From a virus, in the UHGV virus genome UHGV-0191547: a stretch of DNA of 26,648 nt; one strand, 5' to 3'. Of the stretch, positions 1,807 through 18,552 are shown one piece after another (positions within the stretch are counted from its first letter, which is position 1; each line of letters starts with the position of its first letter). The notes below the pieces were generated by a model. The model searched no databases, was not told the origin of the DNA, and saw nothing but the letters and a program-made list of their open reading frames with translations. The position numbers and the translations under genes are program-made.

Positions 1807-2283
1807 ATGTCTCAGACTTGCGAAAAGGGCGCGTTTTTGGGCCGCGACGTGGCTGTATTCTTCGCTATCGCTTGTCCTAACGCGAAGCCGTTAGATGACG
1901 ACTACAAAGCGTTAGGAATGATGCGCGGCAAAACGCTCTCAGTCGAATGGGAAACCGCAGACGCCACCGCTGATAAATCAGCAGACTACACAAAAGAATC
2001 AATGGTTACTTACAAATCTGTTTCTTTCTCCGGCGATGGTGTATCCCGTACTGAAGCAATCCATAATCAGAAAGAACTGAAGCGTCACGTTATTAACCCT
2101 GGTGAAACAACCGGATCTCAGCCTTATGTGTGGCTTAAACTTGTTTCCCCGGTTGATGTAACTGAAGGTCCATTCCTTTGCACTTCCTTTAAAGAGGAAG
2201 ACCCGAACGATGATGTTTCCACCTGGTCTATTGAGTGTTCAAGCGCTGGTAAGGTGACGGTTGGCGACATCCCAGCAGCATAA
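1807..2283 (+). CDS. Major tail tube protein (putative)
   Basis: 158 aa; position equivalent to lambda V between the terminator-like gene and the chaperone/tape-measure genes. Confidence 0.45.
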   Translation: MSQTCEKGAFLGRDVAVFFAIACPNAKPLDDDYKALGMMRGKTLSVEWETADATADKSADYTKESMVTYKSVSFSGDGVSRTEAIHNQKELKRHVINPGETTGSQPYVWLKLVSPVDVTEGPFLCTSFKEEDPNDDVSTWSIECSSAGKVTVGDIPAA

Positions 2284-2324: not shown

Positions 2325-3014
2325 ATGGTGAAAACTATGATTCATGTTCGAACAGGACAATTTGCGGCGGTGGTAGACGGCAGGAGGTATGCGTTTAATC
2401 CCTGCTTCGCTGCAATGGCTAAGATCGGCAGTGACAGCGAACTGGTCGAATACTTCGCAACCATCCACGGTGGCAAATATCCATCACGATTGCCAGCAGA
2501 TCCAGACCTTCGCAATCGCATTCTGGCGCGGTGTTATGGTGAGTTAGTGCAAACGTCAATACACATCCTGAAATGTTGCTCAGACAACGAAATAGGCCCG
2601 TTATTGGGTGAATGTAGGTTTACTCCTTCCGGCAAATTGCGACTAAAACCCGGACTGATGCCGACCAGTGACGTTATCACGCTGGCGCAACATTGCATGT
2701 ACCACGGTTTAATCGGTGACGGGCCAGAAGAAGACGCCGGAGAGATCCGGGAAGGGGAATATAAGCCGACTTTTAACGTGCTGGAATTCGTTTATTCTGC
2801 CGTAGCTCACCTGGGGTTATCAGAATCAGAAGCATGGAATATGACAATGACCGGATATAGAGCCGCCGTACGCGCTAAAACGCCGCCAGACGAAAGAAAC
2901 GAGAGAAGCAAGCCAAACGTTCACATAAATAAACGTGCTTATGACGAGCAAATGGAGGCCGCTAAAAAGGCACTAGAAAGAATGAAAAATCGAGAGCAAG
3001 AAAAAGCCCGGTAG
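2325..3014 (+). CDS. Tail assembly chaperone-like protein (positional, G/GT equivalent)
   Basis: 229 aa ORF immediately upstream of the tape-measure region with a basic/acidic C-terminus; no motif recognised. Confidence 0.3.
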   Translation: MVKTMIHVRTGQFAAVVDGRRYAFNPCFAAMAKIGSDSELVEYFATIHGGKYPSRLPADPDLRNRILARCYGELVQTSIHILKCCSDNEIGPLLGECRFTPSGKLRLKPGLMPTSDVITLAQHCMYHGLIGDGPEEDAGEIREGEYKPTFNVLEFVYSAVAHLGLSESEAWNMTMTGYRAAVRAKTPPDERNERSKPNVHINKRAYDEQMEAAKKALERMKNREQEKAR

Positions 3015-3029
3015 ATCCGGGCGTTTTTG
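3006..3029. terminator. Rho-independent hairpin terminator, probably bidirectional
   Basis: GCCCGG-tagat-CCGGGC stem-loop followed by GTTTTTG, with an A-run on the other side. Confidence 0.6.
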
Positions 3030-3039
3030 TTAAGTTCGC

Positions 3040-3360
3040 TTATGCTATTTTTTCGTAAAGCACATTCATCTGGGTGCGAATCACTGTTAATATATTGATT
3101 GCTGCGTTCTTATCAATGCGTTTATTCGCTACTATTTTTGTTTTCCCATCAATAACAACCAGATCTGCGTGCAATACATGGTTGAAGTTGACAATGTAAT
3201 AATACTGTTTATCGCCAACATGTTGAACATATGCACCATTTAGATTTCCTTTATACCCACAATCACGCTCTGCGACACCGAAGTCAAATTCGCGGTTCAT
3301 CTTGCGATTATATGCTACTTGTTTATGTTCCCATTTTCTCATCCATTCATCGCGCTTCAT
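3040..3360 (-). CDS. Hypothetical protein, antisense cargo cassette A
   Basis: 106 aa ORF 9 nt downstream of the lipoprotein gene on the - strand, RBS AAGGGTGA; AT-rich by eye. Confidence 0.5.
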   Translation of the reverse strand: MKRDEWMRKWEHKQVAYNRKMNREFDFGVAERDCGYKGNLNGAYVQHVGDKQYYYIVNFNHVLHADLVVIDGKTKIVANKRIDKNAAINILTVIRTQMNVLYEKIA

Positions 3361-3369
3361 GTTTCACCC

Positions 3370-4029
3370 TTAATTCCAGTTGCAAGCGTTTTTTACTTTG
3401 TCGATGTGGTTATAAAGACCATCAATGTTAAACACTGCTTTCTCAATGTCGCCAGCTTCCGGCACTACTTCAATGATAAATTGTTTTTCGTTAACCAGAT
3501 TTTTAATCATTGGGATGGCTTTTTTGTCGTTCCATAATCCAAGAGCTTTATAGTTAGTTGACCGCCCCCATTCAGTGGCTACAGCTTTGTGATCGCCGAT
3601 CCGGTAGTTAATATAAGTAGCGTCCCCGGCGTCAGTTACACGGTGTGACCATGCTACGAACATTTTTGTTTTATTACCCTGGCAAGCAATTGTTAATACC
3701 GGTTTATTATTATCCTGTGCCTTCAGTGCCGGGAAGGCATCAAGACTTCCGCTAAAATGATCTGCTTTCACAAAAAGGAACACGTTTTTTGTGTCCTGCA
3801 TATCATCTTTTCTTTCGACCACAAGCCACTGTTTACCAGCTTTTTCTTTTGCTAACTGTGCCTCATATGCGGCTTGTTTTGCTTGTTGTTCCGCAAGCCA
3901 TTTAGCATTTTTCTCAGCCAATGCTTGTTGTTCTTGAGTGGTCACTATAGGCGCTTTTTCATTATCCTCATTGCAACCAACCAGACCCAATACCGCCGCA
4001 ATCATTGCCACTTTTGCTAACTGTTTCAT
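3370..4029 (-). CDS. Lipoprotein, antisense cargo cassette A
   Basis: 219 aa; N-terminus MKQLAKVAMIAAVLGLVGC is a signal peptide with lipobox L-V-G-C; Ala/Gln/Lys-rich predicted coiled segment after the lipidated Cys. Confidence 0.65.
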   Translation of the reverse strand: MKQLAKVAMIAAVLGLVGCNEDNEKAPIVTTQEQQALAEKNAKWLAEQQAKQAAYEAQLAKEKAGKQWLVVERKDDMQDTKNVFLFVKADHFSGSLDAFPALKAQDNNKPVLTIACQGNKTKMFVAWSHRVTDAGDATYINYRIGDHKAVATEWGRSTNYKALGLWNDKKAIPMIKNLVNEKQFIIEVVPEAGDIEKAVFNIDGLYNHIDKVKNACNWN

Positions 4030-4041
4030 AACCCACCACGC

Positions 4042-4131
4042 TTAGTTTTTATTTTTAAGTGATTTTAACATTTCTTCAATGAAATCCGCATAGCGTTCAT
4101 GTTCGTTGGGACGGTAGTTTACGTTTTTCAT
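4042..4131 (-). CDS. Possible micro-ORF (29 aa, MKNVNYRPNEHERYADFIEEMLKSLKNKN) leading cassette A
   Basis: Hand-translated from the - strand; GAGGA-type RBS upstream; not in the ORF track because it is under 60 aa. Confidence 0.2.
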   Translation of the reverse strand: MKNVNYRPNEHERYADFIEEMLKSLKNKN

Positions 4132-4208
4132 TTTCTTGTCCTCTTTTGCTTCCTCCGGTTTATCCGGTCCTTTTAAATCCCTTTACTCTATCCATTTCCT
4201 TTAGCCTC

Positions 4209-4237
4209 TTTATACAAAATGTATTCGTTGAAGTGAA
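4209..4237 (-). promoter_or_regulatory. Candidate sigma70 promoter for cassette A (TTCACT-N17-TATAAA) with upstream CAAAATGG element
   Basis: - strand reads CAAAATGGC-TTCACT-17 nt-TATAAA, nearly identical to the element at 7426-7454. Confidence 0.4.
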
Positions 4238-4289
4238 GCCATTTTGTATAAAATAGAGACATAGATCACATCTTGTATGAGGTTAAATC

Positions 4290-6629
4290 ATGGCTACCAG
4301 TGTAGGTACAATTTATTACGAAGTTGATGCAAAAACTGGTCAACTTCTCGTTGCACAACGACAGGCAGACCAGGCCTTTGACCGTATAGAGCGCGGCGCA
4401 AAACAGGCTGACCGCCAGGTAAACACCCTGAAAACATCCATCAAGGCACTGACCAGGGTTATCCATTTGCTAATTGCTGCCGAGGCTGTGCGCCAATTTA
4501 TGGATATGGCGGAGCAAGCCAAAATGCTTCGCGTAAAAATCAAATTGCTTACAGGTGAAGCGGAGGCAACGGAACGGGTTTTCAACAGACTGAAAGAAAT
4601 ATCAAAAGAAACAGGCCAAAGCCTCAAGGATACTGGTGCCCTGTGGCAAGGTCTTGCTATATCGCTAAAAAACACATCCGCCACAGAAGGCCAGGTGCTC
4701 AACCTGGTCAGCACGCTGCAAAAACTTGGTAACTTGGGCGGCGTGTCTGCGGAACAACTATCAAACTCCATGCTTCAGTTCCGCCAGGCTATTGATGCTG
4801 GCGTGTTGCAGGCGGAAGAGTTCAACTCAATACGTGATAACACCCCAACAATCATACAGGAAATGGCCCGACAGATGGGGTTATCTATGGGGCAGTTCCG
4901 CGCCGAAATGCTGGACGGCAAGATCACGGCTGAAAGGATGCTCAACGCGATCCAGGCGGCTACGCAGGAAACAAACGAGAAGTTTGCACAGTTACCGCGC
5001 ACGTCCGGTATGGCTTTTAATGAGCTTAAAGTCGAGGTGATGGGACTTGTCGAACAACTTGATGATCTTTTCGGCATATCAGATGGCGTTGTGTCAGCTA
5101 TCGACTTAATAACTGGTGGCGTTGAGGGATTAGGTAAAGGCGCAAAATTCGCCGCAACCTGTTTCAATACACTAAAAACGGCTGGCAGTGAGTTTATCGA
5201 CATGTTTGATGATGTTGCTGTTAAAGCTGGTGAGGTGGCGGAAGAGATTATCAGGATGGTAACGCCAATCAAAGCGCTAATGGATGGCTACAAATGGATG
5301 AAGGAGATCATTGATAAACGCAAGAATGAGCTAAACAGCAACAACGAAAAGAAATTCGGCCCTACAGTCGGTAAGGTCATGACGTTTGCAAATGACATCA
5401 AAAATGCGACCGCCGCTTATGATGAGTTTATGCAGAAACAGGGTGAGGCTGATGACGGCAAGATCACCGGATTCGATCAGCCAGTTGGCAAGCCGAAAAA
5501 AGGGAAAAAAGACAAGAAATCTGAAGCTGATCGGCTTGGTGATGAAGGCATAAAAGTATCCGACCAGTACAACAAAGACGCCGCAGCTATGCGCAAAGCG
5601 TTAGAGAACGGCAAGGCCATTGATGCTGCATTCGCCCAGGGTAAAATCACTCTCCTTGAGTACCGCGCCGCGCAAAAAGGGATAGGTAAGGAACTGAAGG
5701 AAGAATTAGCGCAAATTCCGGTAGATGAATTGCGTGATAAATGGGCGCAAATAGTAAGCCCGATGGATCAGCTTAAAGGTGAGGTTGACCCTATCCAGCA
5801 GGTGCAGAATGAATGGGCCGTCCGTAAGCAAATGCTTATCGACCTGGGCGTTACTGAAGCGCAACAGAAACAGGAACTGTTAGCCTATGAGCAACAGATC
5901 CGTGATCTGAAGTGGGAACAGTGGCAGGCACAAAGCGATACAAACGGCCTTATCGGTGATTGCGTTAATGGCCTAAAAGGTGGTATGAGCAATGCACTTG
6001 TTGGCCTGTTAAATGGTACTCAATCATTGAGTGATGTTTTTGCTAACTTAGGCAGCAATATCCTCGGGAATATCGGTAACAGGCTTTCAGACATAGCTGC
6101 AAACTGGATAGCAGATCAGATCATGATGGAAACGCAAAGCAAAGCGACTCAGGCAAGTACCACGGCGGGCGCGGTAGCGGCGCAAGGCCAGATTGCTGCG
6201 GCGGCGGCCCCGGCGGCGGCGGCAACAGCGGCGTCAACTGGCGGCGCATGGGCGGCGGCTGGTTCTGCGGCACTCACTGCGATCATGTCGCTGGCTACGT
6301 CAATTTTCGGCGGCGGTCGCTTTAATGGTGGTAGCGTTATTGGTGGCAATATGTACCGCGTAGGGGAACACAACAGGCCGGAGCTATTCCAGACATCTAA
6401 CGGAAATCAATATATGATCCCAGGCGAGAATGGCAGGGTTATTCCTGGGCGTGATATTGGCGGTGGCGGCGGCATTAGTATGCCTGTCAATATCAACATT
6501 CAGACCACAAACGGATTTAGCGACGAAGACAGTCGCAGACTTGAGCAAACAATGGAACGTGTAGCAATGAAGATGATAACAAGGGAATCACAAAGACCTG
6601 GAGGAATATTGCAACCGCGCCGCAAATAA
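4290..6629 (+). CDS. Tail tape measure protein
   Basis: 779 aa, alpha-helical N-terminal two thirds, Ala/Gly-rich low-complexity tract (AAAAPAAAATAAS), located between chaperone and gpM homologue. Confidence 0.9.
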   Translation: MATSVGTIYYEVDAKTGQLLVAQRQADQAFDRIERGAKQADRQVNTLKTSIKALTRVIHLLIAAEAVRQFMDMAEQAKMLRVKIKLLTGEAEATERVFNRLKEISKETGQSLKDTGALWQGLAISLKNTSATEGQVLNLVSTLQKLGNLGGVSAEQLSNSMLQFRQAIDAGVLQAEEFNSIRDNTPTIIQEMARQMGLSMGQFRAEMLDGKITAERMLNAIQAATQETNEKFAQLPRTSGMAFNELKVEVMGLVEQLDDLFGISDGVVSAIDLITGGVEGLGKGAKFAATCFNTLKTAGSEFIDMFDDVAVKAGEVAEEIIRMVTPIKALMDGYKWMKEIIDKRKNELNSNNEKKFGPTVGKVMTFANDIKNATAAYDEFMQKQGEADDGKITGFDQPVGKPKKGKKDKKSEADRLGDEGIKVSDQYNKDAAAMRKALENGKAIDAAFAQGKITLLEYRAAQKGIGKELKEELAQIPVDELRDKWAQIVSPMDQLKGEVDPIQQVQNEWAVRKQMLIDLGVTEAQQKQELLAYEQQIRDLKWEQWQAQSDTNGLIGDCVNGLKGGMSNALVGLLNGTQSLSDVFANLGSNILGNIGNRLSDIAANWIADQIMMETQSKATQASTTAGAVAAQGQIAAAAAPAAAATAASTGGAWAAAGSAALTAIMSLATSIFGGGRFNGGSVIGGNMYRVGEHNRPELFQTSNGNQYMIPGENGRVIPGRDIGGGGGISMPVNINIQTTNGFSDEDSRRLEQTMERVAMKMITRESQRPGGILQPRRK

Positions 6630-6635
6630 ACGAAA

Positions 6636-6663
6636 CCCCGGTACAATGCCGGGGTTATCTTTT
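6636..6663. terminator. Rho-independent terminator after the tape-measure gene
   Basis: CCCCGG-tacaatg-CCGGGG hairpin followed by TTATCTTTT. Confidence 0.6.
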
Positions 6664-6838
6664 AGTTATTCTCAAAACTTGTATATCCTCTTTCAATTTT
6701 CCCGCCTCTTACACTTCTTGCAAATACTGCATCATTATGTTTGAAAAATGGTTCAGTATATGTGTCTCCTTTACTATCCATCCATTTCACGATCCAGGCT
6801 ATACGTTTTACATTGCTTTTATTTGCCTGGTTTTTCAT
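6662..6838 (-). CDS. Possible small protein (58 aa), third gene of cassette B
   Basis: Hand-translated - strand ORF MKNQANKSNVKRIAWIVKWMDSKGDTYTEPFFKHNDAVFARSVRGGKIERGYTSFENN with RBS GGAGGAAAATAAA before the ATG. Confidence 0.3.
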   Translation of the reverse strand: MKNQANKSNVKRIAWIVKWMDSKGDTYTEPFFKHNDAVFARSVRGGKIERGYTSFENN

Positions 6839-6956
6839 TTTATTTTCCTCCGCAAATTACAATCTTCCGTTTCTGGCTATATAGCTGCGAGAAAACATCA
6901 CCAACCAAATATTCCAGATCTCCCTCCAGGTGAATTTATCGTCCTCCATACCCACC

Positions 6957-7211
6957 TCACTTATGGCAACCGCGAACGCCAGACAATTCATTGAATTTAT
7001 GGTGTTCAACAATCACCCACTCTTTCAGATCCTGGCTATAGACTCGCCAGTCTAAATTGGCGCGGAAGGCGTAGCCGTAACCGTCTTTCAATTTTTTGGG
7101 TGACGCATTCTTGTTTAAAAACGCGTTCAAAAGTTCCTTTGCTTTTTTGACTACATGTCCCGGCGCGTTTTTCTGTGCTTTCAGATTTTTGTCAATCGCT
7201 ACCAGTTTCAT
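6957..7211 (-). CDS. Small protein with RelE/ParE-like toxin signature (candidate mRNA interferase)
   Basis: 84 aa; C-terminal KKLKDGYGYAFRANLDWRVYSQDLKEWVIVEHHKF resembles the RelE/ParE core pattern kLkG..g.yelRvgdyRviY....ilrigHRk recalled from memory. Confidence 0.4.
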   Translation of the reverse strand: MKLVAIDKNLKAQKNAPGHVVKKAKELLNAFLNKNASPKKLKDGYGYAFRANLDWRVYSQDLKEWVIVEHHKFNELSGVRGCHK

Positions 7212-7228
7212 AACTCACCCCATCATCC

Positions 7229-7384
7229 TTAGTTAAGTGCCTTCAGGAAGAAGTCCCGGTATTCATCTTCTTTTGCATTCATCATGAATTGACCGTATTT
7301 GAATGCGTCGTCGAAACCCTTAACGATTGCTATTTCCACTTGTTCGAATGCGTTGTTTAGCATTACCACTACATAGCGTTTCAT
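7229..7384 (-). CDS. Small protein (51 aa) upstream of the RelE/ParE-like gene; possible antitoxin partner
   Basis: Internal start MKRYVVVM chosen over the ORF-track start at 7459 because it has a strong RBS (GAAGGAGG, 6 nt spacing); the 7459 ATG lies inside the conserved promoter element. Confidence 0.4.
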   Translation of the reverse strand: MKRYVVVMLNNAFEQVEIAIVKGFDDAFKYGQFMMNAKEDEYRDFFLKALN

Positions 7385-7425
7385 TTTGGGCCTCCTTCGT
7401 TGGTACTGCTTTTCTTCTTGCTTTC

Positions 7426-7454
7426 TATATACATCTTGATGCGTGATATGTGAA
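7426..7454 (-). promoter_or_regulatory. Candidate sigma70 promoter for cassette B (TTCACA-N17-TATATA) with upstream CAAAATGG element
   Basis: - strand reads CAAAATGGC-TTCACA-17 nt-TATATA; 17 of 18 nt identical to the cassette A element at 4233-4250. Confidence 0.4.
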
Positions 7455-7553
7455 GCCATTTTGTAAACTAGCTATAATCATTGTGATGAAGATCTCATTT
7501 TTTGCGTAGAATCGCGTAAAAGTATATACAAAATGTAAATTATAGGGGGATTT

Positions 7554-7907
7554 ATGCCTGAAGTGTTCCGATGGACACCACAAAGAAGCTACAGCGTAAA
7601 CAGTGAGCCTAACGTGTCTGTCATTAAGCTGGGTGATGGGTATGAACAGCGCCAGACAAAAGGGATTAACCCTTTACTTGATAGCTACAGCCTGGTTTTT
7701 AAAGGCACAAGCGCCGGATGCGGTGACGCCGGAAACGTGGCGCTCCAAGTTGACGCATTTTTAAGGGCGCGTTGCGCGGTCGAGGCGTTTTACTGGACTC
7801 CATCAACTGACGGGGTGCAAAGGCTTTTTGTATGCAGAAAGTGGAGCATGACGAAAGACGGCCCGGTATGCACGCTAAACGCAACTTTTGAGCAAGTTGT
7901 CAATTAA
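7554..7907 (+). CDS. M: Minor tail protein M
   Basis: 117 aa; FRWTP...GDGYEQR and C-terminal ATFEQVVN match the lambda gpM pattern (recalled ...FSAEFEQVVN). Confidence 0.85.
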   Translation: MPEVFRWTPQRSYSVNSEPNVSVIKLGDGYEQRQTKGINPLLDSYSLVFKGTSAGCGDAGNVALQVDAFLRARCAVEAFYWTPSTDGVQRLFVCRKWSMTKDGPVCTLNATFEQVVN

Positions 7908-8343: not shown

Positions 8344-8547
8344 TTAAGGTAACTCCACTTCGTTAAATGTAACAAGCACCCCTTGATTTTCTTTATTTAT
8401 AATTATGAAGGCATTAATTGAAGGCAGACATCTTTCCACGCGGTAAACGTCACCAATATCTAAACTGTAATATTCTGTTAATTCTCTATTGTTCCCTTTA
8501 GCAAAACCCGTAAACCTAACCATTTTTTGACCGTCGTACTTTAACAT
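8344..8547 (-). CDS. Hypothetical protein (67 aa), cassette C
   Basis: - strand ORF with AGGA RBS, tightly packed with neighbours; AT-rich. Confidence 0.45.
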   Translation of the reverse strand: MLKYDGQKMVRFTGFAKGNNRELTEYYSLDIGDVYRVERCLPSINAFIIINKENQGVLVTFNEVELP

Positions 8548-8555
8548 ATACAGTC

Positions 8556-8804
8556 CTATAGGTTATCACGCAGATAATTAACGCCTTTGTCAGTGACGAA
8601 TGAGTGATTAACCTGGTTTTCATCCGTCATGATGATGAATGACTTTTCCTGTAGGTATTTCGCTTTTGGGTACAGCGTTAAACAGACCTGGTACAGTATC
8701 CCGCGCTCAATCAGCAAATCAATAAATTCGTGCTCATGATAACCGACGAGGCGGGCGGCTTGTTTCAACGTGTACACATAATCGCCGTGATTGCGCCGCC
8801 CCAT
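8556..8804 (-). CDS. Hypothetical protein (82 aa), cassette C; possible helix-turn-helix
   Basis: Segment YTLKQAARLVGYHEHEFIDLLIERGIL has a helix-turn-helix-like pattern; no family recognised. Confidence 0.45.
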   Translation of the reverse strand: MGRRNHGDYVYTLKQAARLVGYHEHEFIDLLIERGILYQVCLTLYPKAKYLQEKSFIIMTDENQVNHSFVTDKGVNYLRDNL

Positions 8805-8813
8805 GTTGCCGCC

Positions 8814-9161
8814 TTATTTATCGAATGCGCCCAGGTTATCTATGCAGAAGTCTTTCGCAGCTTTTTCGTATTCGCGTTTTGCTTGCGGATCGTCTGCCGG
8901 GAAACCTTTTGCGTGTATTTCACCAGGGCAAGACTGATCCATAGAATCAGCAAATTCAACATTGACGTTAAAGTTAATATCTTTCGGATTCATGTTTTCC
9001 ACCTCATCAATTATCTGCACCGGATTAGCGGCATATTTCACTGGATGGCCTAAACTACATTCAAGAATCCTTCCTTCTTCCAAAGCTGCCTCTTCGCTAT
9101 CAAATAATCCGAAACACTCCTTGCAACCACTTAACCACACATCAAGACTATATTTTTGCAT
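8814..9161 (-). CDS. Hypothetical Cys-containing acidic protein (115 aa), cassette C
   Basis: - strand ORF with GAGAGG RBS; CKEC...C...SCPGEIH cysteines suggest possible metal binding. Confidence 0.5.
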   Translation of the reverse strand: MQKYSLDVWLSGCKECFGLFDSEEAALEEGRILECSLGHPVKYAANPVQIIDEVENMNPKDINFNVNVEFADSMDQSCPGEIHAKGFPADDPQAKREYEKAAKDFCIDNLGAFDK

Positions 9162-9329: not shown

Positions 9330-9375
9330 CTCACACCTCCGCGCCATTTTGTTAACTGTGCTTCCGTTTGAGTAA

Positions 9376-9404
9376 AATATACATATTGTATAAACCGCGA
9401 TCAA
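9376..9404 (-). promoter_or_regulatory. Candidate sigma70 promoter for cassette C (TTGATC-N17-TATATT) with upstream CCAAAATGG element
   Basis: - strand reads CCAAAATGGA-TTGATC-17 nt-TATATT; same architecture as the cassette A and B elements. Confidence 0.35.
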
Positions 9405-9458
9405 TCCATTTTGGTATGATTTAGCGTGACGCAGATCACAAAATCAGAAGGTGAGAAA

Positions 9459-11384: not shown

Positions 11385-14300
11385 ATGAGTAGCGGCGGCG
11401 GCAAAGCAAAAACACCAACTTTAATTAACGATAATCTATATCACAAACAGTTTTATCGTGTACTCGACATTATTTCAGAAGGTCCGATTTATGGTCCTGT
11501 TAATACCAATGCGCCATTAAACAGCGTAATGCTTAATGACACCCCTGTAACTGACGCGAACGGCAATACCAGCATCCCCGGTATTAGCGTAGCGTGGCGC
11601 AATGGTACGATAGATCAATCACCGATTAACGGTTTTAACGCCATTGAATCAACCGTTATTGTTAACGCACAGGTTAAACACGATACACCAATAATCAGGA
11701 CCGTTTCCGATCCTAACGTAAACCGCGTTCGCCTGAATATCGGCGTCGATTCACTTGTACAATCTGACGAGCAAAGCAATCAACATAACACATCGGTTAT
11801 GATGATGATTGACGTGAAGCCTTCGTCTTCTTCTACGTGGACGCTTGTTAAAGACGTTACTATAGGCCCAGGTAAGATCAGCGGAGAATATCTTGAAGCG
11901 CATATTATCAATGCACCAGATGAAAAACCGTTTGATATTCGCGTTCGCCGTGTAACCGCTGATAGCACAAGCGATCTGTTGCAGAATGATACGCGATGGA
12001 GTAGCTACAGCGAAATAATCGACGATAATTTGTCTTATCCTCACACCGCTGTAGCTGGCGCGGTAATTGACCATGATCAGTACGCTGACACGCCTACCCG
12101 CACCTATCACCTTCGCGGGCTGATTGTTGATATTCCTGATAACTACGACCCGGAAAAGCGCACTTATTCCGGTTTGTGGCTTGGCGGCTTCAAACAGGCG
12201 TACACCAATAACCCAGCATGGATCTTCCGCTATCTGGTTAAAAACGAGCGTTTCGGCCTTGCTCGTCACGCTGGCTATATTGACGTTGACGACGGCGCAT
12301 TATATACGCTTTCTCAATACTGCGACCAGTTGGTTGATGATGGCTACGGCGGCCTTGAGCCTCGCATGACGCTTAACGCTTACATCACAGAGCAAATGAG
12401 CGCCCGCGACTTACTGGACAATATCGCCGGGATGTTCAGGGGTATCGCGTTATGGGACGGGCAACGCCTTACCGTGATGATTGATGCACCACAAGACCCG
12501 ATCGCCACCATTACAAATGCAAATGTCGTTGATGGCGCGTTTACTCGTTCAAGTATCGCCCGCGCAGAATGCTACAACGCCGTGATCGTATCATGGACTG
12601 ACCCGGAAAACGGATGGGAGCAATCAAAAGAGTATGTAGCAGACGATGAACTGATCGCCCGTGATGGTTACAACGAAACCACGTTAGAGGCGTTCGGGTG
12701 CACATCACGCGGGCAAGCATACCGCGCGGGCAAGTGGCTGATAGAAACAGCAAAACGCGAGCCGTCAAAATTCACGTTTAAAATGGCGCGTGACGCGATT
12801 CACTTTACGCCAGGGGATATTATCGAGATACTCGACAATAACCGCGCAGGCGCTCGTTTAGGCGGCCGCATCGTTGCGAACAACGGCAAAGTAATAACGG
12901 TAGATAAGGTTGACGCCAATTATATCGCCGCTGGGGATACAATCAGCCTTCTTGATAGCGATGGCAAGTTTAAAAAGCATCAGATCACCGGGGTGAGCGG
13001 AAACAAAATCACACTGGCGGCGGCCCCGTCATGGATTCGAAACGGCACTGTTTTTGCTGTATCCACTGAATCAGCAAAACCCGTTTTGTGCCGGATCACC
13101 AGTGTAGCCGAAACAGAAAATAACAGCGTGTACACCATCGAGGCCGCACAGCACGACCCGAACAAGCAAGCAGTGGTCGATGAAGGCGCAATATTTGAAG
13201 TCAACAATGACACGCTTAACCATTTCCGCGTGCCGAACATTGAAAATCTGAAGGTGGTAAACATTGGATCGGAAACAATTCAATGTCGCGCCACATGGGA
13301 AACGCAGACAACAACGCATCGTATGACATTTGAGATCCGCATATATAATGCAGATGGTGCGGTGGTTAAAAGCTATGAAACAACGAAATACAGTTATGAT
13401 TTTTATGGCATTGACGCTGGCGTGTATTCTTTAGGGGTTCGCGGAAGAAATGACACTGGCATGAAGGGCGCGGAAAGTATTGTGGATCTGGTTATTGGTG
13501 CGCCAGCAGCGCCAATAGGTGTTAACTGGGTACCAGGTGTATTTCAGGCTACCGTATACCCGATAAGTAAGACAACGCTAACCACTGATACAGCGTATGA
13601 ATTCTACTATGCAGGGGAAAACCAGATCACAGATCCGGCAAAAATAACCACGGCGGCACAGTTTACCGGGCGCGGGTATCAGTGGACGTTCGGCGGAATG
13701 AACACGGGCCATACTTATTACGTTTATGTGCGTACACGTAATGCTTTTGGCGTGTCAGACTTCGTTGAAGCATCAGGTAAGCCGACAGAAAATTTTGATG
13801 AAATTAGCGATTACGTCACCAAAGACGTGATGAATTCCGAACAATTTAAAGAAATGGTGGGCGACATTAAGGATCTTGGCGATCGCACTGACATTATCGA
13901 AAGTGCAACTCAAGACCTTAAAACAGCTACTGATACCCTAAGCGGAATAACTGAAGGCTTAAGAACTGATACTGATAATTTAATTACAGAAACAGAATCA
14001 ATTAAAGCTGATACTGATTCCCTTAAAAAAGACACTGAAGACCTTTACAAGAAAGTCGAAGAAAACGCCGATGAAATAGGTAAACATGAGGTAAGAATTG
14101 ACTCATTAGAGGTATCAAGCGAAAACGTAGATAATGAACTGGCACAGACAAAAGCAAGCCTACAAAACGCATCGCTTGCTCTTATTAATAATTCGCTTGC
14201 TCAAACTAATACCAGAAGAACGCTGACAGCTCAGATCAAAAACGTGGATTATGAAACTAAGGCGCAAATAGATCGCATTGATAACGTGATTGTCAGTGAA

Positions 14301-16304
14301 AAAGAAGCAAGAGCGGAGGCAATGGAGACAATTACCGCCGAAATCGACACGATGGATAAAAACATCAAAGGTGAGATTGCGCGCGTAGATACTGCCATTG
14401 CCAATGAGAGCCAGGCAAGGGCTGATGCCATCAGTGAAGTTAGCGCAAACATTGACGCACTTGATAGTAAAACAGATGCCAGTGTTAATCGTCTTGATCA
14501 AGCTATCGCAGATGAGGCCAGCGCACGCGCACAGGCTATCAGCAATGTCAATGCGAGCATGACAAATCTTGATAACAAGGTTACAAGCAACGTTTCTAGA
14601 CTTGATCAGGCAATAGCTGACGAATCAAGCGCAAGAGCAGAAGCCGATGATCAGTTAATAGCAAAAAGCGAAAAACTTGATGGTGATCTCGCTATGGCAA
14701 GGGCAAGCCTACAAAACGCTTCGCTTGCTCTCATCAATAATACATTGTCTCAGACAAAGACAAGGCGCACTCTCACAGCGGAGTTCAAACGCGGACAAAG
14801 TGAAACTAAAGCACAAATTGACCGTATTGATAATGTCATTACTGACGAAAAACAGGCAACAGCGGAAGCGTTTGAAACTATCACAGCAGAAATGAACACG
14901 ATGGACTCAAACATTAAAGGAGAAATATCACGATTAGATAAAGTGATCGCGACTGAAACGCAAGCAAGATCTGAAGCTATAAGTAGTGTTAATGCAAGCA
15001 TAAAGACGCTAGAAAGCGACACTGAAGCCAGCGTTAACCGTCTTGATCAGGCAGTTGCTGACGAGGCCAGCGCCCGCGCACAAGCTATCAGCGGAGTAAA
15101 TGCAAGCATCAGCACGCTTGATAGCAAGGTTACAAGCAATGTGACCCGTATCGACAAAGCTATTGCAGATGAGACGCAGGCCCGCACAGACGCAATAAGC
15201 AACCTTAACTCATCGCTTACCAGTACGATTAATTCTAAAGTATCTGAAGTATCAACAGCACTTTCTACGCATGAAGCATCAAGCGCGGAAAAATTCAGCC
15301 AGATCTCAGCGTCTTTCGAAGCTGTAAACTCAAGCATCACGGAATGGTCGCAGACCATGACAACGGCGGACGAGGCATTATCAACCAAAATTGATCAGTT
15401 AACAGTAACCGTTAATGGGAACACAACAGCGATCGAGACGACATCGAAAGCGTTAACCGACTTCAAAGGTAATGTTGATGCGTCATGGTCAATCAAGATT
15501 GCTACTGATAACAACGGCATGAAATACGCTACAGGTATGTCGCTTGGCCTGACTGGTAGCGGGACTAACGTTCAATCGCAGTGTATTTTCCTCGTTGACC
15601 GCTTCGTGTTAATGACCGCAGCAAACGGCACATATACAACGCCTTTCTATGTGTCTAATGGTGCAATGTATGTGAAAGAAGCGTTTATTAAAAACGCATC
15701 AATAGGTACAGCTAAAATTGCAGATGCAGCCATTACTATGGCTAAAATTGTTAATGAAATAAAATCATCAAACTATGTTGCTGGTTCTAAAGGTTGGAGG
15801 ATAACACAAAGCGGATCATCAGAATTTAACGATGTTGTGGTAAGGGGCGAAATCCATGCTAATAGCGGTAAATTCAAAGGAACTGTAGAAGCTACATCCT
15901 TTGTTGGTGATGTCGCATCTACTAACGTTATACCGCAATCATCATTCCCTGGGACAAGTACAAGCGGATCTCGATCTGTTACGAAGACGTATAAAGATTC
16001 ATCATCAAGCTCGCTTTCGAAAACAGTTTTCGTAATGATTCCTTACCATCTTACTTATTATACTTATTCAGGATCATCAACAATAAAAGTAACAATTGAT
16101 ATTAATGGCAATAGCAAAACATATAACGTAGTAAGGGCGGCATCATCGCCTCAATTCGGATTTACGGTATCACATTGCGTAACTGGGATTACTGCTCAAA
16201 CAGTTACGATAAAAATAACAGAGGAATACACCAACACCGGAACATCAGCAGAAAGAAGGCCAGGTCTTGCACTTGTTACAAGAAGCTCAGGATCATGGTC
16301 ATAA
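11385..16304 (+). CDS. J: Central tail fibre / host specificity protein J with an expanded coiled-coil repeat region
   Basis: 1639 aa; N-terminal ISEGPIYGP, FGCTSRGQAYRAGKWL and the C-terminal KYATGMSLG...FLVDRF block match recalled lambda gpJ; about 500 aa of heptad-like repeats inserted between them. Confidence 0.9.
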   Translation: MSSGGGKAKTPTLINDNLYHKQFYRVLDIISEGPIYGPVNTNAPLNSVMLNDTPVTDANGNTSIPGISVAWRNGTIDQSPINGFNAIESTVIVNAQVKHDTPIIRTVSDPNVNRVRLNIGVDSLVQSDEQSNQHNTSVMMMIDVKPSSSSTWTLVKDVTIGPGKISGEYLEAHIINAPDEKPFDIRVRRVTADSTSDLLQNDTRWSSYSEIIDDNLSYPHTAVAGAVIDHDQYADTPTRTYHLRGLIVDIPDNYDPEKRTYSGLWLGGFKQAYTNNPAWIFRYLVKNERFGLARHAGYIDVDDGALYTLSQYCDQLVDDGYGGLEPRMTLNAYITEQMSARDLLDNIAGMFRGIALWDGQRLTVMIDAPQDPIATITNANVVDGAFTRSSIARAECYNAVIVSWTDPENGWEQSKEYVADDELIARDGYNETTLEAFGCTSRGQAYRAGKWLIETAKREPSKFTFKMARDAIHFTPGDIIEILDNNRAGARLGGRIVANNGKVITVDKVDANYIAAGDTISLLDSDGKFKKHQITGVSGNKITLAAAPSWIRNGTVFAVSTESAKPVLCRITSVAETENNSVYTIEAAQHDPNKQAVVDEGAIFEVNNDTLNHFRVPNIENLKVVNIGSETIQCRATWETQTTTHRMTFEIRIYNADGAVVKSYETTKYSYDFYGIDAGVYSLGVRGRNDTGMKGAESIVDLVIGAPAAPIGVNWVPGVFQATVYPISKTTLTTDTAYEFYYAGENQITDPAKITTAAQFTGRGYQWTFGGMNTGHTYYVYVRTRNAFGVSDFVEASGKPTENFDEISDYVTKDVMNSEQFKEMVGDIKDLGDRTDIIESATQDLKTATDTLSGITEGLRTDTDNLITETESIKADTDSLKKDTEDLYKKVEENADEIGKHEVRIDSLEVSSENVDNELAQTKASLQNASLALINNSLAQTNTRRTLTAQIKNVDYETKAQIDRIDNVIVSEKEARAEAMETITAEIDTMDKNIKGEIARVDTAIANESQARADAISEVSANIDALDSKTDASVNRLDQAIADEASARAQAISNVNASMTNLDNKVTSNVSRLDQAIADESSARAEADDQLIAKSEKLDGDLAMARASLQNASLALINNTLSQTKTRRTLTAEFKRGQSETKAQIDRIDNVITDEKQATAEAFETITAEMNTMDSNIKGEISRLDKVIATETQARSEAISSVNASIKTLESDTEASVNRLDQAVADEASARAQAISGVNASISTLDSKVTSNVTRIDKAIADETQARTDAISNLNSSLTSTINSKVSEVSTALSTHEASSAEKFSQISASFEAVNSSITEWSQTMTTADEALSTKIDQLTVTVNGNTTAIETTSKALTDFKGNVDASWSIKIATDNNGMKYATGMSLGLTGSGTNVQSQCIFLVDRFVLMTAANGTYTTPFYVSNGAMYVKEAFIKNASIGTAKIADAAITMAKIVNEIKSSNYVAGSKGWRITQSGSSEFNDVVVRGEIHANSGKFKGTVEATSFVGDVASTNVIPQSSFPGTSTSGSRSVTKTYKDSSSSSLSKTVFVMIPYHLTYYTYSGSSTIKVTIDINGNSKTYNVVRAASSPQFGFTVSHCVTGITAQTVTIKITEEYTNTGTSAERRPGLALVTRSSGSWS
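14154..15200 (+). repeat. Intragenic tandem duplication in J (two diverged units of about 550 bp, roughly 183 aa each)
   Basis: Both units open with GCAAGCCTACAAAACGC (14154 and 14704) and contain nested VNRLDQA(I/V)ADE(A/S)SARA sub-repeats. Confidence 0.8.
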
Positions 16305-16335: not shown

Positions 16336-16584
16336 TTAGTAGTTAGCTACACAATTCGACGGGCTACCTATGCGGCGCATGTTGTGATCGAGTTCATGAC
16401 ACCATTGACCAGTATATGGCAGTTTTTCAGTGTCATATACAAGATGACCATTAGCATCATAGACGATTTCTTGTGGAATCACTCCGCTATTTGGCAGGTT
16501 ATGCAATGCAGCTTCTTTGTCAACAGCGCAACCAGTAAGAGCAACAGCCGCAGCGAATAAAACCACTTTGAACATGTTTTTCAT
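16336..16584 (-). CDS. Small lipoprotein (82 aa), antisense cassette D between J and the tail fibre
   Basis: MKNMFKVVLFAAAVALTGC signal peptide with lipobox A-L-T-G-C; single gene between two terminators. Confidence 0.6.
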   Translation of the reverse strand: MKNMFKVVLFAAAVALTGCAVDKEAALHNLPNSGVIPQEIVYDANGHLVYDTEKLPYTGQWCHELDHNMRRIGSPSNCVANY

Positions 16585-16761
16585 TTTTTAATCCTCGTTC
16601 TTGTTAGCTCATCCGGTTCATCCGGTGGCTTAAATATCCGACAAAACCACATTTCGTATATTGATATAAATCAATAAATACATTTTGTATAAGTCAAAAA
16701 TGTAACATAGATCACAAAATGGTAGAATTATTCCGTTAATTAACATAATGGAGTCATTGCG

Positions 16762-18552
16762 ATGATTTATACAACGGGAACAATTGCCATTAACGGCAAT
16801 ACTGTTACAGGCACGGGAACAAACTTTTCCGCGCCGCTTTCTCTCATCCGTGTAGGTTGCACGCTCATTGCCATTAGCAATCCTATCCAGATCTTTACCA
16901 TCACAGAAATTAAGAGCGGTACTGAACTGTCAGTGACGCCAGCGGCTAACCCTGCAATTGCTGCCGGGGCAAAATTCAGCATTCTGCTTTCTGACTCTAT
17001 CTCAGTTGATGGGCTTGCCCAGGATGTAGCGGAAACACTTCGTTTTTATCAGGAAAAAGAAGACGAAATATCCAGCGCAATAGATGGCAGCAATATTGGC
17101 TTAGGTCCAGAGCCGCGCGATTGCGTCGATATATCAGGCGATCCGTCTTCTTACGTTGGCTTTTTGCGCATAAAGGAAACGACTAAGGGTTTTCCTTCTG
17201 TAGCGGCTGGTGAATCATTTTTGAGTGGATTTATCTGTCAACGAGACACGACGCCTTCATATACAGGCGTCTTTGTCGGTTGGGCTACGCGATCACTTTA
17301 TACGTATACATGGGTCGCAACATCAGGTCCGAACTGGACACGACACGCAAGAAAAGATGAGGTGGATAGGCTTGTTCAAAGAACAGGAGAAACTCGCGTA
17401 CGCGCTCAAAACGCAAATAAATTCCTTACCGTCTATGATTCAGGATCGTGGGGTTATTATGACTCAGAGGCTAGTAAATGGCTACCGCTTCCAGTTCTTG
17501 CTGGAGGCACTGGTGCGGGAAACGCAGAAGAAGCAAGAAATAATTTAAATCTTGGTGAAAGCAACGCGGTTAAATTCAAAAACCTTACGTTAATAGGGGC
17601 GCTAGATGCAAATTTAGGCATGCTCGTAAAAACTGGAAGAGACTGGAATACTCAGCACACTGACAATATCCAAAAATTTATACCAATGGCAGGAAGCACA
17701 AACGGACCCGCCGGAGCAATGGTACTCGGTGGCTTCCATGTGCAATACAGCACAAATTACGCTGTGCAATTCGGGGGTCGAAATTCCGGTTTTTGGGGTA
17801 GAACAATTGAAAACGGAACAGTTCAGGAATGGCGTCAACTAGCTACGCTTAACACATCCGGTCAAAAATGGACTGCCGGTCAGCATTTTGTGACGACAAA
17901 AATTAACTCTTATGATTTCACAAGACGTTTAACTATCGATGTGATAGAAAACGCAAAAACAAACGCACGGTTACGCTTATGGGGATCAGAAACAAGGCAG
18001 TCCGTTTTAGAATATGGACTCTCGAACGCTGAAACCGATGAGTATAATACATATGGCTTTTATTGCCAGCTTAACCCAGACGGAGTAATTAGTTTTCAGG
18101 TTAACGGCGTAGTAAACTGCACAGCAGTTAATCAGACTTCAGATCGCGATCTGAAGGACAACATTCAGGTTATAGGTGATGCAACTGAAGCAATCCGTAA
18201 AATGAACGGGTACACCTACACCCTCAAGGAAAACGGCCTGCCTTACGCTGGCGTTATCGCTCAAGAGGTAATGGAGGCGCTGCCGGAGGCTGTGGGATCG
18301 TTTACTCATTACGGTAAAGCATTACAAGGCCCGACCACTGACGGCAACGAGCTACGCGAGGAAACGCGTTACCTCAATGTTGACTACGCTGCGGTGACTG
18401 GTTTACTTGTTCAGGTGGCACGCGAAACAGATAACCGCGTCACCGAACTGGAGGAAGAAAACGCCAGCTTACGAGCTAACATTGCCGTCATGGATGAGCG
18501 GATCACAAAACTTGAAGCGCTTGTCAGGCAGTTAACCGGAAGCGAAGAATAA
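16762..18552 (+). CDS. Tail fibre/tailspike protein with C-terminal intramolecular chaperone (peptidase S74-like) domain
   Basis: 596 aa; C-terminal TSDRDLKDNIQVIGDATEAIRKMNGYTY...YAGVIAQEV followed by a coiled coil is the S74 autoproteolytic chaperone signature. Confidence 0.75.
   Translation: MIYTTGTIAINGNTVTGTGTNFSAPLSLIRVGCTLIAISNPIQIFTITEIKSGTELSVTPAANPAIAAGAKFSILLSDSISVDGLAQDVAETLRFYQEKEDEISSAIDGSNIGLGPEPRDCVDISGDPSSYVGFLRIKETTKGFPSVAAGESFLSGFICQRDTTPSYTGVFVGWATRSLYTYTWVATSGPNWTRHARKDEVDRLVQRTGETRVRAQNANKFLTVYDSGSWGYYDSEASKWLPLPVLAGGTGAGNAEEARNNLNLGESNAVKFKNLTLIGALDANLGMLVKTGRDWNTQHTDNIQKFIPMAGSTNGPAGAMVLGGFHVQYSTNYAVQFGGRNSGFWGRTIENGTVQEWRQLATLNTSGQKWTAGQHFVTTKINSYDFTRRLTIDVIENAKTNARLRLWGSETRQSVLEYGLSNAETDEYNTYGFYCQLNPDGVISFQVNGVVNCTAVNQTSDRDLKDNIQVIGDATEAIRKMNGYTYTLKENGLPYAGVIAQEVMEALPEAVGSFTHYGKALQGPTTDGNELREETRYLNVDYAAVTGLLVQVARETDNRVTELEEENASLRANIAVMDERITKLEALVRQLTGSEE

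Follow-up and report, generated by a model that had tools for sequence, protein, structure and literature searches.

A VasI/TagO-family lipoprotein in an antisense cassette of an mEpimmI-type coliphage tail operon: gene anatomy, family context and a possible role in superinfection exclusion

Gene content and architecture of the antisense cassette

The 26,648-nucleotide (nt) stretch of UHGV virus genome UHGV-0191547, henceforth the window, is the late (tail) portion of the genome of an Escherichia coli siphophage, a temperate member of the mEp021/mEpimmI group, with MagusPhagus and the mEp phages as its closest sequenced relatives in megablast searches. Between its DUF6246 gene and its tail tape measure gene lies a cassette of three minus-strand open reading frames (ORFs) coding for 29, 219 and 106 amino acids (aa), each of which is preceded by a Shine-Dalgarno-like sequence (Table 1). 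The 219-aa product is a predicted lipoprotein of the PF11319 (VasI/TagO) family, and the cassette that encodes it might function as a prophage-expressed exclusion factor, as argued below. The DUF6246 gene occupies the position of the tail assembly chaperone after the tail tube gene and from this position would be expected to have the chaperone role, while the tape measure gene is divergent from the cassette. In the related phage L027 these two genes directly abut with no insert. The GC content across positions 3000-4200 is 0.385-0.435 as against about 0.48-0.52 in the flanks, and a bidirectional intrinsic terminator with T-runs on both strands closes both the DUF6246 gene and the cassette. Thus, the locus displays the typical anatomy of a moron, namely extra DNA between otherwise adjacent genes, a terminator of its own and atypical base composition. 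A first-pass annotation of the window had described a lipoprotein cassette at the junction that in HK97 holds gene 15; the slot is indeed the one in which that phage encodes a superinfection exclusion protein (PMC3594210), and the three ORFs, the LVGC lipobox and the Asn at the +2 position were all recovered where that annotation had placed them.

Judged by conservation, the three cassette ORFs are genuine genes rather than chance ORFs, because the 219-aa product has family matches and a ratio of nonsynonymous to synonymous substitution rates (dN/dS) of 0.20-0.26 versus its relatives, indicative of purifying selection, the 106-aa ORF keeps its full length at 73-98% identity in three homologous clusters, and the 29-aa ORF shows a substitution pattern that favours coding. 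The hydrophilic product of the last of these (MKNVNYRPNEHERYADFIEEMLKSLKNKN), which has a GAGGA Shine-Dalgarno sequence, differs from its mEp021 counterpart by 10 synonymous as against 4 non-synonymous codon changes, together with an in-frame indel of one codon, and from that of MagusPhagus by 5 synonymous versus 2 non-synonymous changes. By this pattern the micro-ORF, listed only as possible in the first-pass annotation, is a real coding sequence, yet one that is separable from the VasI cargo: it is present in the window, L007, L011, STEC308, mEp021 and MagusPhagus, whereas M1/5 and MS 21-1, both of them VasI-carrying prophages, lack it. Small plus-strand ORFs have been annotated over this 27-29-aa micro-gene in MagusPhagus (L001:4664-4768) and mEp010 (L061:1604-1705); the substitution pattern favours the minus-strand reading over these calls.

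The lipoprotein gene is found at the same junction position in 17 IMG/VR contigs, including a 100% identical copy on the 53.9-kb contig L006. Among 5,426 complete E. coli genomes no fewer than 15 have it, always at this junction, where RefSeq names it 'type VI secretion system-associated protein TagO'. Its hosts are gut and pathogenic E. coli, including Shiga toxin-producing strains (STEC).

Table 1. Features of the window and alternative cargo genes at the equivalent junction of related phages and prophages (L-numbers are loci of the comparison set)
Feature	Position	Strand	Remarks
Tail tube gene	1807-2283	+	
DUF6246 gene	2325..3014	+	Left flank; PF19759 (E 6e-55); phrog_791
Bidirectional intrinsic terminator	3006..3022	both	GCCCGG-TAGAT-CCGGGC; six G-C pairs; A-run and T-run flanks
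106-aa ORF	3040..3360	-	Last of the cassette; begins 9 nt past the 219-aa stop; no signal peptide or transmembrane (TM) segment
219-aa lipoprotein ORF	3370..4029	-	Middle of the cassette; PF11319; phrog_1848
Predicted VasI/DUF3121 (PF11319) beta-sandwich	3370..3828	-	Residues 68-219 and stop
Predicted A/Q/E/K-rich helix	3841..3939	-	Residues 31-63; AlphaFold2 model m64586cb33018; follows disordered residues 1-29
Predicted lipoprotein signal peptide	3973..4029	-	Residues 1-19; MKQLAK / VAMIAAVLG / LVGC; Cys19 predicted to be lipidated
29-aa ORF	4042..4131	-	First of the cassette; ends 12 nt before the 219-aa start
Inverted repeat, perfect, 13 bp	4209-4221, 4240-4252 (arms)		Between the cassette and the tape measure ATG
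Sigma-70-like promoter candidate	4210..4238	-	-35 TTCACT 4238..4233; 17-nt spacer; -10 TATAAA 4215..4210; read from sequence
Tail tape measure gene	4290..6629	+	Right flank; TMP_3 (E 3.6e-48); phrog_1538 (E 2e-144)
Second antisense cassette	6662-7459	-	Between tape measure and minor tail genes; ORFs of 58, 84 and 76 aa
Minor tail protein gene	7554-7907	+	
Third antisense block	8344-9161	-	ORFs of 67, 82 and 115 aa
J gene	11385-16304	+	
82-aa lipoprotein gene	16336..16584	-	Directly after J; phrog_12984
Junctions with common sequence modules	4209-4252, 7452-7535, 9340-9440, 16612-16716		Antisense block / next forward tail gene
First slot: VasI-like lipoprotein			219 or 203 aa
First slot: 137-138-aa Sec-exported protein	L002:3618-4034, L061:1118-1534, L001:4131-4544		mEp021_63, mEp010_97 and MagusPhagus, respectively
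First slot: 160-aa Sec-exported protein	L058:4482-4964		Also in L059
Following slot: 106-aa protein			For example in L006, L008-L011, L020 and M1/5
Following slot: 124-aa lipoprotein	L005:3129-3503; L012-L019 and L021 at 5671-6045	- (L005)	Also in STEC308 and MS 21-1; phrog_18614
Following slot: both 106-aa and 124-aa genes	L058:5345-5719 (124-aa gene)		L058
Following slot: empty			L022, L060

A lipidated and stalked branch of the VasI/TagO family

The N-terminus of the 219-aa protein reads MKQLAKVAMIAAVLGLVGC, followed directly by NEDNEK, and displays the lipobox pattern [LVI][ASTVI][GAS]C, sought at residues 15-25 behind an n-region and a hydrophobic h-region, in the form L-V-G-C, with Asn in the +2 position. 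Across 13 homologues G15, L16, G18 and C19 do not vary, and V17 hardly does. Profile searches recovered a significant match to the Pfam family PF11319 (VasI, formerly DUF3121; 53.9 bits versus a gathering threshold of 26.5, E 2.3e-14), with residues 55-218 aligned to positions 25-184 of the 184-position profile, as well as to phrog_1848, a family of unknown function (E 2e-56); the Pfam domain is also present in all 12 close homologues. The first-pass annotation had not foreseen this affiliation. It had expected a protein type different from that of HK97 gp15, which is borne out, and the protein is also unlike Llp and Cor. Homology to a tail assembly component, which the same annotation had named beforehand as evidence to the contrary of an envelope-acting function, was found for the lipoprotein in neither Pfam nor PHROG, and given this and the presence of the lipobox a role in tail assembly was rejected. 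Remote homology searches with the 106-aa protein yielded neither a family nor a fold match.

An exhaustive HMMER search returned 2,067 cluster representatives at E <= 1e-3, of which only 6 scored at E <= 1e-30 before the scores drop to about 100 bits; thus, within a large family the phage proteins make up a sub-clade that is tight and isolated. In an alignment of 33 sequences (23-34% identity) the residues W68, D79, C116, T121, R143, P190, C216 and W218 are invariant. The C-terminus reads NACNWN, as against ACNW in the canonical members, and the Cys pair together with ACNW constitutes the family signature. Invariance of the Cys116-Cys216 pair fits a disulfide formed in the periplasm. At the other end of the protein, canonical members start with a cleavable Sec signal and carry at least one Cys...RLxCYD motif; both are replaced in the phage clade by the lipobox and a segment rich in A, Q, E and K. 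The AlphaFold2 model depicts this segment as a single long helix of about 33 residues (79% A/Q/E/K), with a predicted local distance difference test score (pLDDT) of about 65-73; the helix probably serves as a stalk that links the globular domain to the lipid anchor. The mature N-terminus had been described as coiled-coil-like in the first-pass annotation; a long helix is indeed predicted there, but a clear heptad pattern was not seen in it. In the same model, which is of moderate confidence (pLDDT 71.7), the globular domain takes the form of an IalB-like beta-sandwich. A sequence search of solved structures with the 219-aa and 106-aa proteins gave nothing significant, and no match at E <= 0.001 emerged when the lipoprotein model was compared with the PDB by Foldseek. 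A loosely defined lipobox-like motif was found in 17 of 153 scanned sequences, a set that took in three homologues of the 106-aa partner and some gene fragments. The lipoprotein hence appears to typify a lipidated, stalked sub-clade of PF11319, which is a new observation.

Is the lipoprotein a component of type VI secretion?

The name of the Pfam family, after VasI, and the RefSeq label of the E. coli prophage copies would suggest that the protein is a genuine accessory of a type VI secretion system (T6SS), i.e. a prophage-borne TagO/VasI which either aids delivery of effectors by the T6SS of the host or shields the periplasm of the lysogen from the T6SS of neighbouring cells. The family member VCA0118 is encoded in the T6SS cluster of Vibrio cholerae, where Hcp and VgrG are secreted without it while full killing of E. 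coli and amoebae needs it (PMC3166118). Since the T6SS injector is built like a phage tail, it is plausible that a periplasmic protein countering injection could work on both kinds of machinery. With VCA0118 and the rest of the family the window protein shares a score above the gathering threshold, the eight invariant columns (W, D, C, T, R, P, C, W) and the ACNW motif, and it is likewise predicted to be an exported periplasmic beta-sandwich in the size range of roughly 200-230 aa. In contrast to VCA0118-type proteins, it falls below the threshold of the TIGR03360 VasI equivalog model (41.6 bits versus a cut-off of 124.2), carries a lipobox instead of a Sec-cleaved signal and the A/Q/E/K helix instead of the canonical Cys...RLxCYD N-terminus, and is encoded in a phage tail operon, with tail tube, DUF6246, tape measure and minor tail genes rather than a T6SS cluster as its neighbours. 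None of the seven distant relatives whose contigs were retrieved, a sample skewed to relatives of the phage clade, is surrounded by a T6SS cluster; three of them lie in prophages and the rest in housekeeping neighbourhoods (housekeeping-context loci L029:8001-8642 and L030:8001-8627). A 2026 review furthermore lists the function of TagO as unknown (PMC13584744). Thus, a T6SS accessory role for the window protein is improbable, and these observations suggest that the T6SS label is misleading for a part of the VasI/TagO family.

Among the chromosomal family members, one is encoded between glyQ and glyS, the genes for the alpha and beta subunits of glycyl-tRNA synthetase, with a 4-nt overlap with the upstream gene in what is probably an alphaproteobacterium, another directly follows a gyrB-like gene with an 8-nt overlap, and one lies near prfA. 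The first two of these housekeeping settings look conserved.

PF11319 genes as recurrent cargo of temperate phages

A tblastn search of 50,697 phage records uncovered PF11319-like genes in 24 of them, including P2-like phages of E. coli, Citrobacter (PhiSM) and Klebsiella, phages of Pasteurella, the Brucella phage BiPBO1 and a Labrenzia phage; the VasI-like gene of PhiSM had been noted earlier (PMC6456863). The relatives in prophages show 23-45% identity and their locations recur around a few themes. In BiPBO1 the gene (gp67) comes right after that of the repressor and in the same orientation, in a Pontibaca prophage it is immediately downstream of an S24 CI-like repressor, and in the Labrenzia phage it resides in the immunity region. 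An Agrobacterium prophage has it antisense between Phage_TAC_11 and TMP_3 genes, and a P2-like prophage at its end beside a hok/mok-like gene. The member in a Mu-like prophage follows Mor and lies a short way upstream of the genes for endolysin and holin.

Scanning IMG/VR for the sequence pattern of a narrow alignment of canonical members yielded 55 contigs, 36 of which lie outside the mEpimmI clade. Pfam analysis of the gene's two neighbouring ORFs to either side in these 36 contigs (140 ORFs in all, biased to phage-like sequences as is the seven-relative sample) recovered 16 matches to HTH_3, 10 to Peptidase_S24, 6 to tape-measure families and 2 to Phage_TAC_11, with no T6SS family among the 25 commonest families. 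At 10 loci a co-oriented ORF of repressor size ends within 180 nt upstream of the gene, a count taken separately from that of the 10 Peptidase_S24 matches; flank domains and ORF sizes together suggest that the gene sits beside a CI-type repressor in about 10 of the 36 contigs. At 6 of the 36 loci an opposite-strand ORF of 630-900 aa belonging to one of three tape-measure families abuts the gene, so that the order of chaperone, antisense VasI-like gene and tape measure seen in the window is repeated. Prophage-expressed genes are classically located in repressor operons and at the junction of chaperone and tape measure genes. Accordingly, the family emerges from these contexts as a recurrent cargo of temperate phages at positions typical of lysogen-expressed genes, with no sampled member in a T6SS locus, an association that we believe to be new.

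The location of the Mu-like prophage member could alternatively point to a role in the phage cycle itself, such as that of an o-spanin-like protein, of another lysis or assembly accessory, or of an Llp-like factor blocking the re-adsorption of virions to lysing cells. The window protein is a predicted outer-membrane lipoprotein encoded in the late region, and T5 Llp and the mEpimmI Lpp proteins illustrate the lytic-cycle use of phage lipoproteins (PMC11893012). However, the cassette runs opposite to the late operon and brings along a terminator and a promoter-like module, there is no i-spanin-like partner, as the 106-aa protein has no N-terminal TM segment, and neither Pfam nor PHROG reveals homology to a tail or lysis component. 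Moreover, the lipoprotein is absent from most of the phage group (mEp021, mEp010, MagusPhagus) and is therefore dispensable for the phage cycle. The spanin or lysis reading was rejected on the grounds of the missing TM partner, the antisense orientation and this dispensability, and a phage-cycle role of any kind is very improbable.

Exchange of exported cargo at the junction

Comparison of 17 IMG/VR loci and several genomes revealed that the content of the junction is modular (Table 1). Its first slot is occupied by a VasI-like lipoprotein or by one of two types of unrelated Sec-exported protein, which match no family. The first-slot proteins all start with MKRL(A/I)K and the same upstream module precedes each of them. 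Megablast identity of the window to the mEp phages reaches about 34 nt into the 219-aa ORF, and roughly the first 11 codons of this ORF lie within the DNA block that is common to phages with other exported cargo. The following slot is equally variable. One of its occupants, the 124-aa lipoprotein (MKKIIKAVLIGVMALALTGC followed by ARS), has an LTGC lipobox and weak matches to BamE (PF04355, E 1e-3) and DUF7738. The first-pass annotation had regarded the 106-aa protein as a partner of the lipoprotein, which does not hold: this second gene is swapped or missing at some loci and is also found behind a non-VasI first gene. The pair as such does recur in other prophages, as that annotation had suggested might be looked for, and is elsewhere broken up. 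An obligate two-protein system was hence rejected, and the 106-aa gene is best described from its distribution as an independent orphan module. What stays constant at the site is that an exported protein is encoded behind a conserved regulatory module and export leader. That the first slot always codes for an exported protein, and that the alternative second gene itself codes for a lipoprotein, argues for selection for envelope proteins at this site. These comparisons suggest, as a further new observation, that the chaperone/tape-measure junction of mEpimmI phages is a modular exchange site for exported proteins.

The promoter candidate upstream of the cassette agrees with the sigma-70 consensus in 9 of 12 positions, and a promoter scan omits it because its -10 element is without the final T (the T at -7). 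This TTCACT-N17-TATAAA site, which the first-pass annotation had taken as the promoter of the cassette, is indeed present and is enclosed by a perfect inverted repeat (TTTATACAAAATG / CATTTTGTATAAA), unchanged in six phages or prophages that carry different cargo. Its location within an invariant repeat supports a functional element at the promoter site, and the repeat (4209..4252) is a candidate operator/promoter core. The half-site TTTATACAAAATG has 6 matches in the window at up to two mismatches versus 1.7 expected, a number reached by 0 of 100 shuffles, and it recurs at three further junctions of the window between an antisense block and a forward gene, with related sites at 7523, 9382 and 16681. 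Several additional modules are common to these junctions. The sequence CATTTTGTATA...ACATAGATCACA is found upstream of the tape measure gene as well as of the gene at 16762 (local alignment score of 31 versus 17.4 +/- 2.7 in shuffles), the hairpin CCGGTTnATCCGG is present in the 5' leaders of both the 29-aa gene and the 82-aa lipoprotein gene, and GAAGCCATTTTGTA is also found in common between junctions, with the CAT at 7457-7459 being the start codon of the 76-aa antisense ORF. Such modules may be promoters or operators of morons, or alternatively recombination linkers. Rfam gave only a sub-threshold and meaningless miRNA match on the inverted repeat, and the predicted 5' leader is no more structured than its shuffles (z -0.58).

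Comparison with known exclusion and defence systems

HK97 gene 15 is the founding moron. Its product resembles that of the window in occupying the same slot as an independent unit of atypical GC content and in being located in the envelope (by prediction in the case of the window). The two differ in that gp15 is a small YebO-like inner-membrane protein encoded in the direction of the tail genes, whereas the window has a 219-aa lipoprotein of unrelated fold in an antisense cassette of two to three genes; furthermore, exclusion is an established phenotype of gp15 and a proposed one of the window protein.

Closer relatives in terms of phage group are the small mEpimmI lipoproteins, two of which (mEp021 gp81 and mEp010 gp116) have been experimentally verified to exclude phages of their own group (PMC11893012). 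In the 2025 mEpimmI paper the lipoproteins of the structural gene cluster fall into four sequence types, and two small ones were tested. In common with Llp of T5, Cor of phi80, N15 and mEp167 and the mEpimmI Lpp proteins, the window protein would be an outer-membrane lipoprotein of a phage or prophage that acts at the envelope, and, like the Lpp proteins, it belongs to this phage group and is encoded among the structural genes on the strand opposite to the tail genes. Llp, Cor and Lpp are of 60-80 aa and are encoded beside the gene for the receptor-binding protein, whereas the window protein is three times larger and encoded 7 kb away from J; it has no match to Cor, Llp or PF24052 in Pfam or PHROG. 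The slot of gp81 and gp116 is filled in the window by the 82-aa lipoprotein (MKNMFKVVLFAAAVALTGC...), which has no sequence relation to gp81.

The third point of comparison is SDIC4B from Serratia defence islands, for which a preprint reports a VasI-like fold and a 10-200-fold protection against phages on its own (bioRxiv 10.1101/2024.01.28.577318). The sequences of SDIC4A and SDIC4B were derived from the plasmid sequence in the supplement of that preprint; loci L032-L054 were covered as well. In our own reading both proteins start with typical Sec signal peptides ending in AHA, hence SDIC4 apparently acts in the periplasm; SDIC4B also matches the phage protein family phrog_3429 (E 4e-13), with no Pfam match. 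Neither the Sec signals nor the phrog_3429 match was found in the available portion of the preprint text. The system is reminiscent of the window cassette in that SDIC4B occurs outside T6SS loci in a two-gene operon, protects alone and, by our reading, is exported to the periplasm. It differs in having another partner, a chromosomal BrxR-associated context and a Sec-cleaved SDIC4B, as opposed to the tail-gene neighbours and lipobox of the window protein. No similarity was found between the 106-aa protein and SDIC4A, and homology of the two pairs (lipoprotein with SDIC4B, 106-aa protein with SDIC4A) was rejected, in the former case at both the sequence and the profile level. PADLOC, in a 2023 release older than SDIC4, had no defence-system model for any of the cassette proteins.

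Potential function of the cassette

Taking these strands together we read the cassette as a moron, a horizontally acquired and presumably independently transcribed mini-operon placed antisense in the tail operon of an mEpimmI-type (mEp021-like) coliphage, and tentatively propose, with a confidence that stops somewhat short of an even chance, that it supplies a prophage-expressed protective or exclusion factor acting in the periplasm. The proposal draws on context, namely the moron anatomy, the envelope-only cargo, the prophage positions of the family and the purifying selection, and on analogy to HK97 gp15, Lpp and SDIC4B. Transcription would start at the promoter/inverted-repeat module near the start of the tape measure gene, cover the 29-aa, 219-aa and 106-aa genes and stop at the bidirectional terminator. 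The main product would be exported by the Sec/Lgt/Lsp pathway and lipidated on Cys19. The +2 residue sets the membrane sorting of lipoproteins (the Lol-avoidance rule), and the Asn in this position therefore predicts an outer-membrane anchor, to the inner leaflet of which the protein would be sorted by the Lol system. From there, a helix of ~5 nm would hold the disulfide-bonded VasI/IalB-like beta-sandwich in the periplasm. The lipoprotein would thus be made in the lysogen as a binding module that protects the cell envelope. Its most probable action would be to block infection by superinfecting phages at or after adsorption, most probably at a post-adsorption step, with either the periplasmic face of a host envelope protein needed by incoming phages or the incoming tail-tip/tape-measure apparatus as its target.

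Several observations weigh against this proposal. The sole experimentally studied member of the family, VCA0118, has T6SS-linked killing and virulence phenotypes rather than an anti-phage one (PMC3166118), and the housekeeping chromosomal context of four of the seven sampled distant relatives implies that the family has non-phage roles too. The phage already carries, in the 82-aa protein after J, a small Lpp-type lipoprotein in the slot that is experimentally tied to exclusion in this group, and hence does not require a second exclusion protein. The 138-aa alternative cargo is common to phages that use OmpA (mEp021) and LamB (mEp010), which argues, at least for that cargo, against a simple masking of the carrier's own receptor; this is a single data point on the relation between cargo and receptor type. 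The +2 residue varies among the homologues (N, G, R, E and one D), so that outer-membrane sorting is not strictly conserved. As for the promoter claimed in the first-pass annotation, the hexamers by themselves match the consensus weakly and stand at the chance level, with 3 promoter-like sites in the region by the scan as against 3.1 expected. Finally, SDIC4B has no detectable similarity to the window protein in sequence or profile, with a BLASTP E of 5.9 and hhalign probabilities of 0.1% (A1 alignment versus SDIC4B) and 0.3% (the 33-sequence VasI profile versus a 14-sequence SDIC4B profile), and its VasI-like fold is a claim made in the preprint.

A different reading of the same moron anatomy, which fits it equally, is that the protein is a lysogenic-conversion factor unrelated to phage defence, altering the envelope for adhesion or invasion, for resistance to serum or stress, or for resistance to colicins or peptidoglycan-targeting toxins. 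Bor and Lom of lambda are examples of such factors. Roles of this kind are suggested by IalB, the product of the Bartonella invasion-associated locus B (PDB 3dtd), and by VCA0118, for which a part as an adhesin, or as a virulence factor required against amoebae, has been put forward (PMC3166118); the many family members that are housekeeping-encoded periplasmic proteins (at glyQ/glyS, the gyrB-like gene and prfA) would be in line with a general envelope role, and the occurrence in gut and pathogenic E. coli, including STEC, points the same way. The likeness to IalB is, however, one of fold in a moderate-confidence model, with 9% identity and no Pfam IalB match, and extends to proteins whose own biochemical function is unknown, as is the case for IalB. 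Exclusion genes are at least as typical occupants of sites beside CI repressors and inside tail operons, the rapid exchange of unrelated exported cargos resembles an arms-race locus more than a virulence locus, and no eukaryote-interaction domain was detected. Lysogenic conversion of this kind is rather unlikely.

Returning to the exclusion proposal, a more general version of it may be entertained, though it is speculative and we consider it unlikely. Under this version PF11319 would be, at its root, a periplasmic anti-injection module, a binding domain that intercepts the tip or tape-measure apparatus of contractile as well as non-contractile tail-like injectors (those of phages and, by extension, T6SS spikes) on their way through the periplasm. 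Temperate phages would spread it as exclusion cargo next to their repressor and tape measure genes, and the mEpimmI junction would be a dedicated exchange site for exported cargo. The presence of family members in some T6SS clusters would then reflect the same activity, for instance self-protection or control of the injector, and at the junction the promoter/operator, the micro-protein and the signal-peptide leader would stay constant while periplasmic defence domains are swapped behind them.

Already established before this analysis were the RefSeq annotation (arguably misleading), the PHROG of unknown function, the moron site and the existence of phage exclusion lipoproteins. Since 2011 VasI/TagO has gone without an assigned function, while annotations throughout label it T6SS-associated. 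Should the lipoprotein protect, a function would be assigned to a family of >2,000 clusters at 50% identity, and a class acting in the periplasm would be added to the prophage-encoded defences, with a link to the SDIC4 observation; should it not protect, the locus would be an ordinary uncharacterised moron. The junction in any event offers a compact natural system for the study of how phages exchange envelope-acting cargo.

Other antisense blocks in the window

Two further antisense blocks interrupt the tail operon (Table 1). In the second antisense cassette the 84-aa protein contains a ParE-like toxin domain (PF24732, E 1e-7) and the 76-aa protein belongs to phrog_29810; the Pfam and PHROG scan identified no obvious antitoxin in this block, which is named 'ParE family toxin-like protein' by RefSeq in E. 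coli prophages. The 82-aa protein of the third block, distinct from the lipoprotein of the same length after J, contains a KilAC/ANT antirepressor domain (PF03374, E 2e-6), and the equivalent place in mEp021 is annotated as 'putative antirepressor'.

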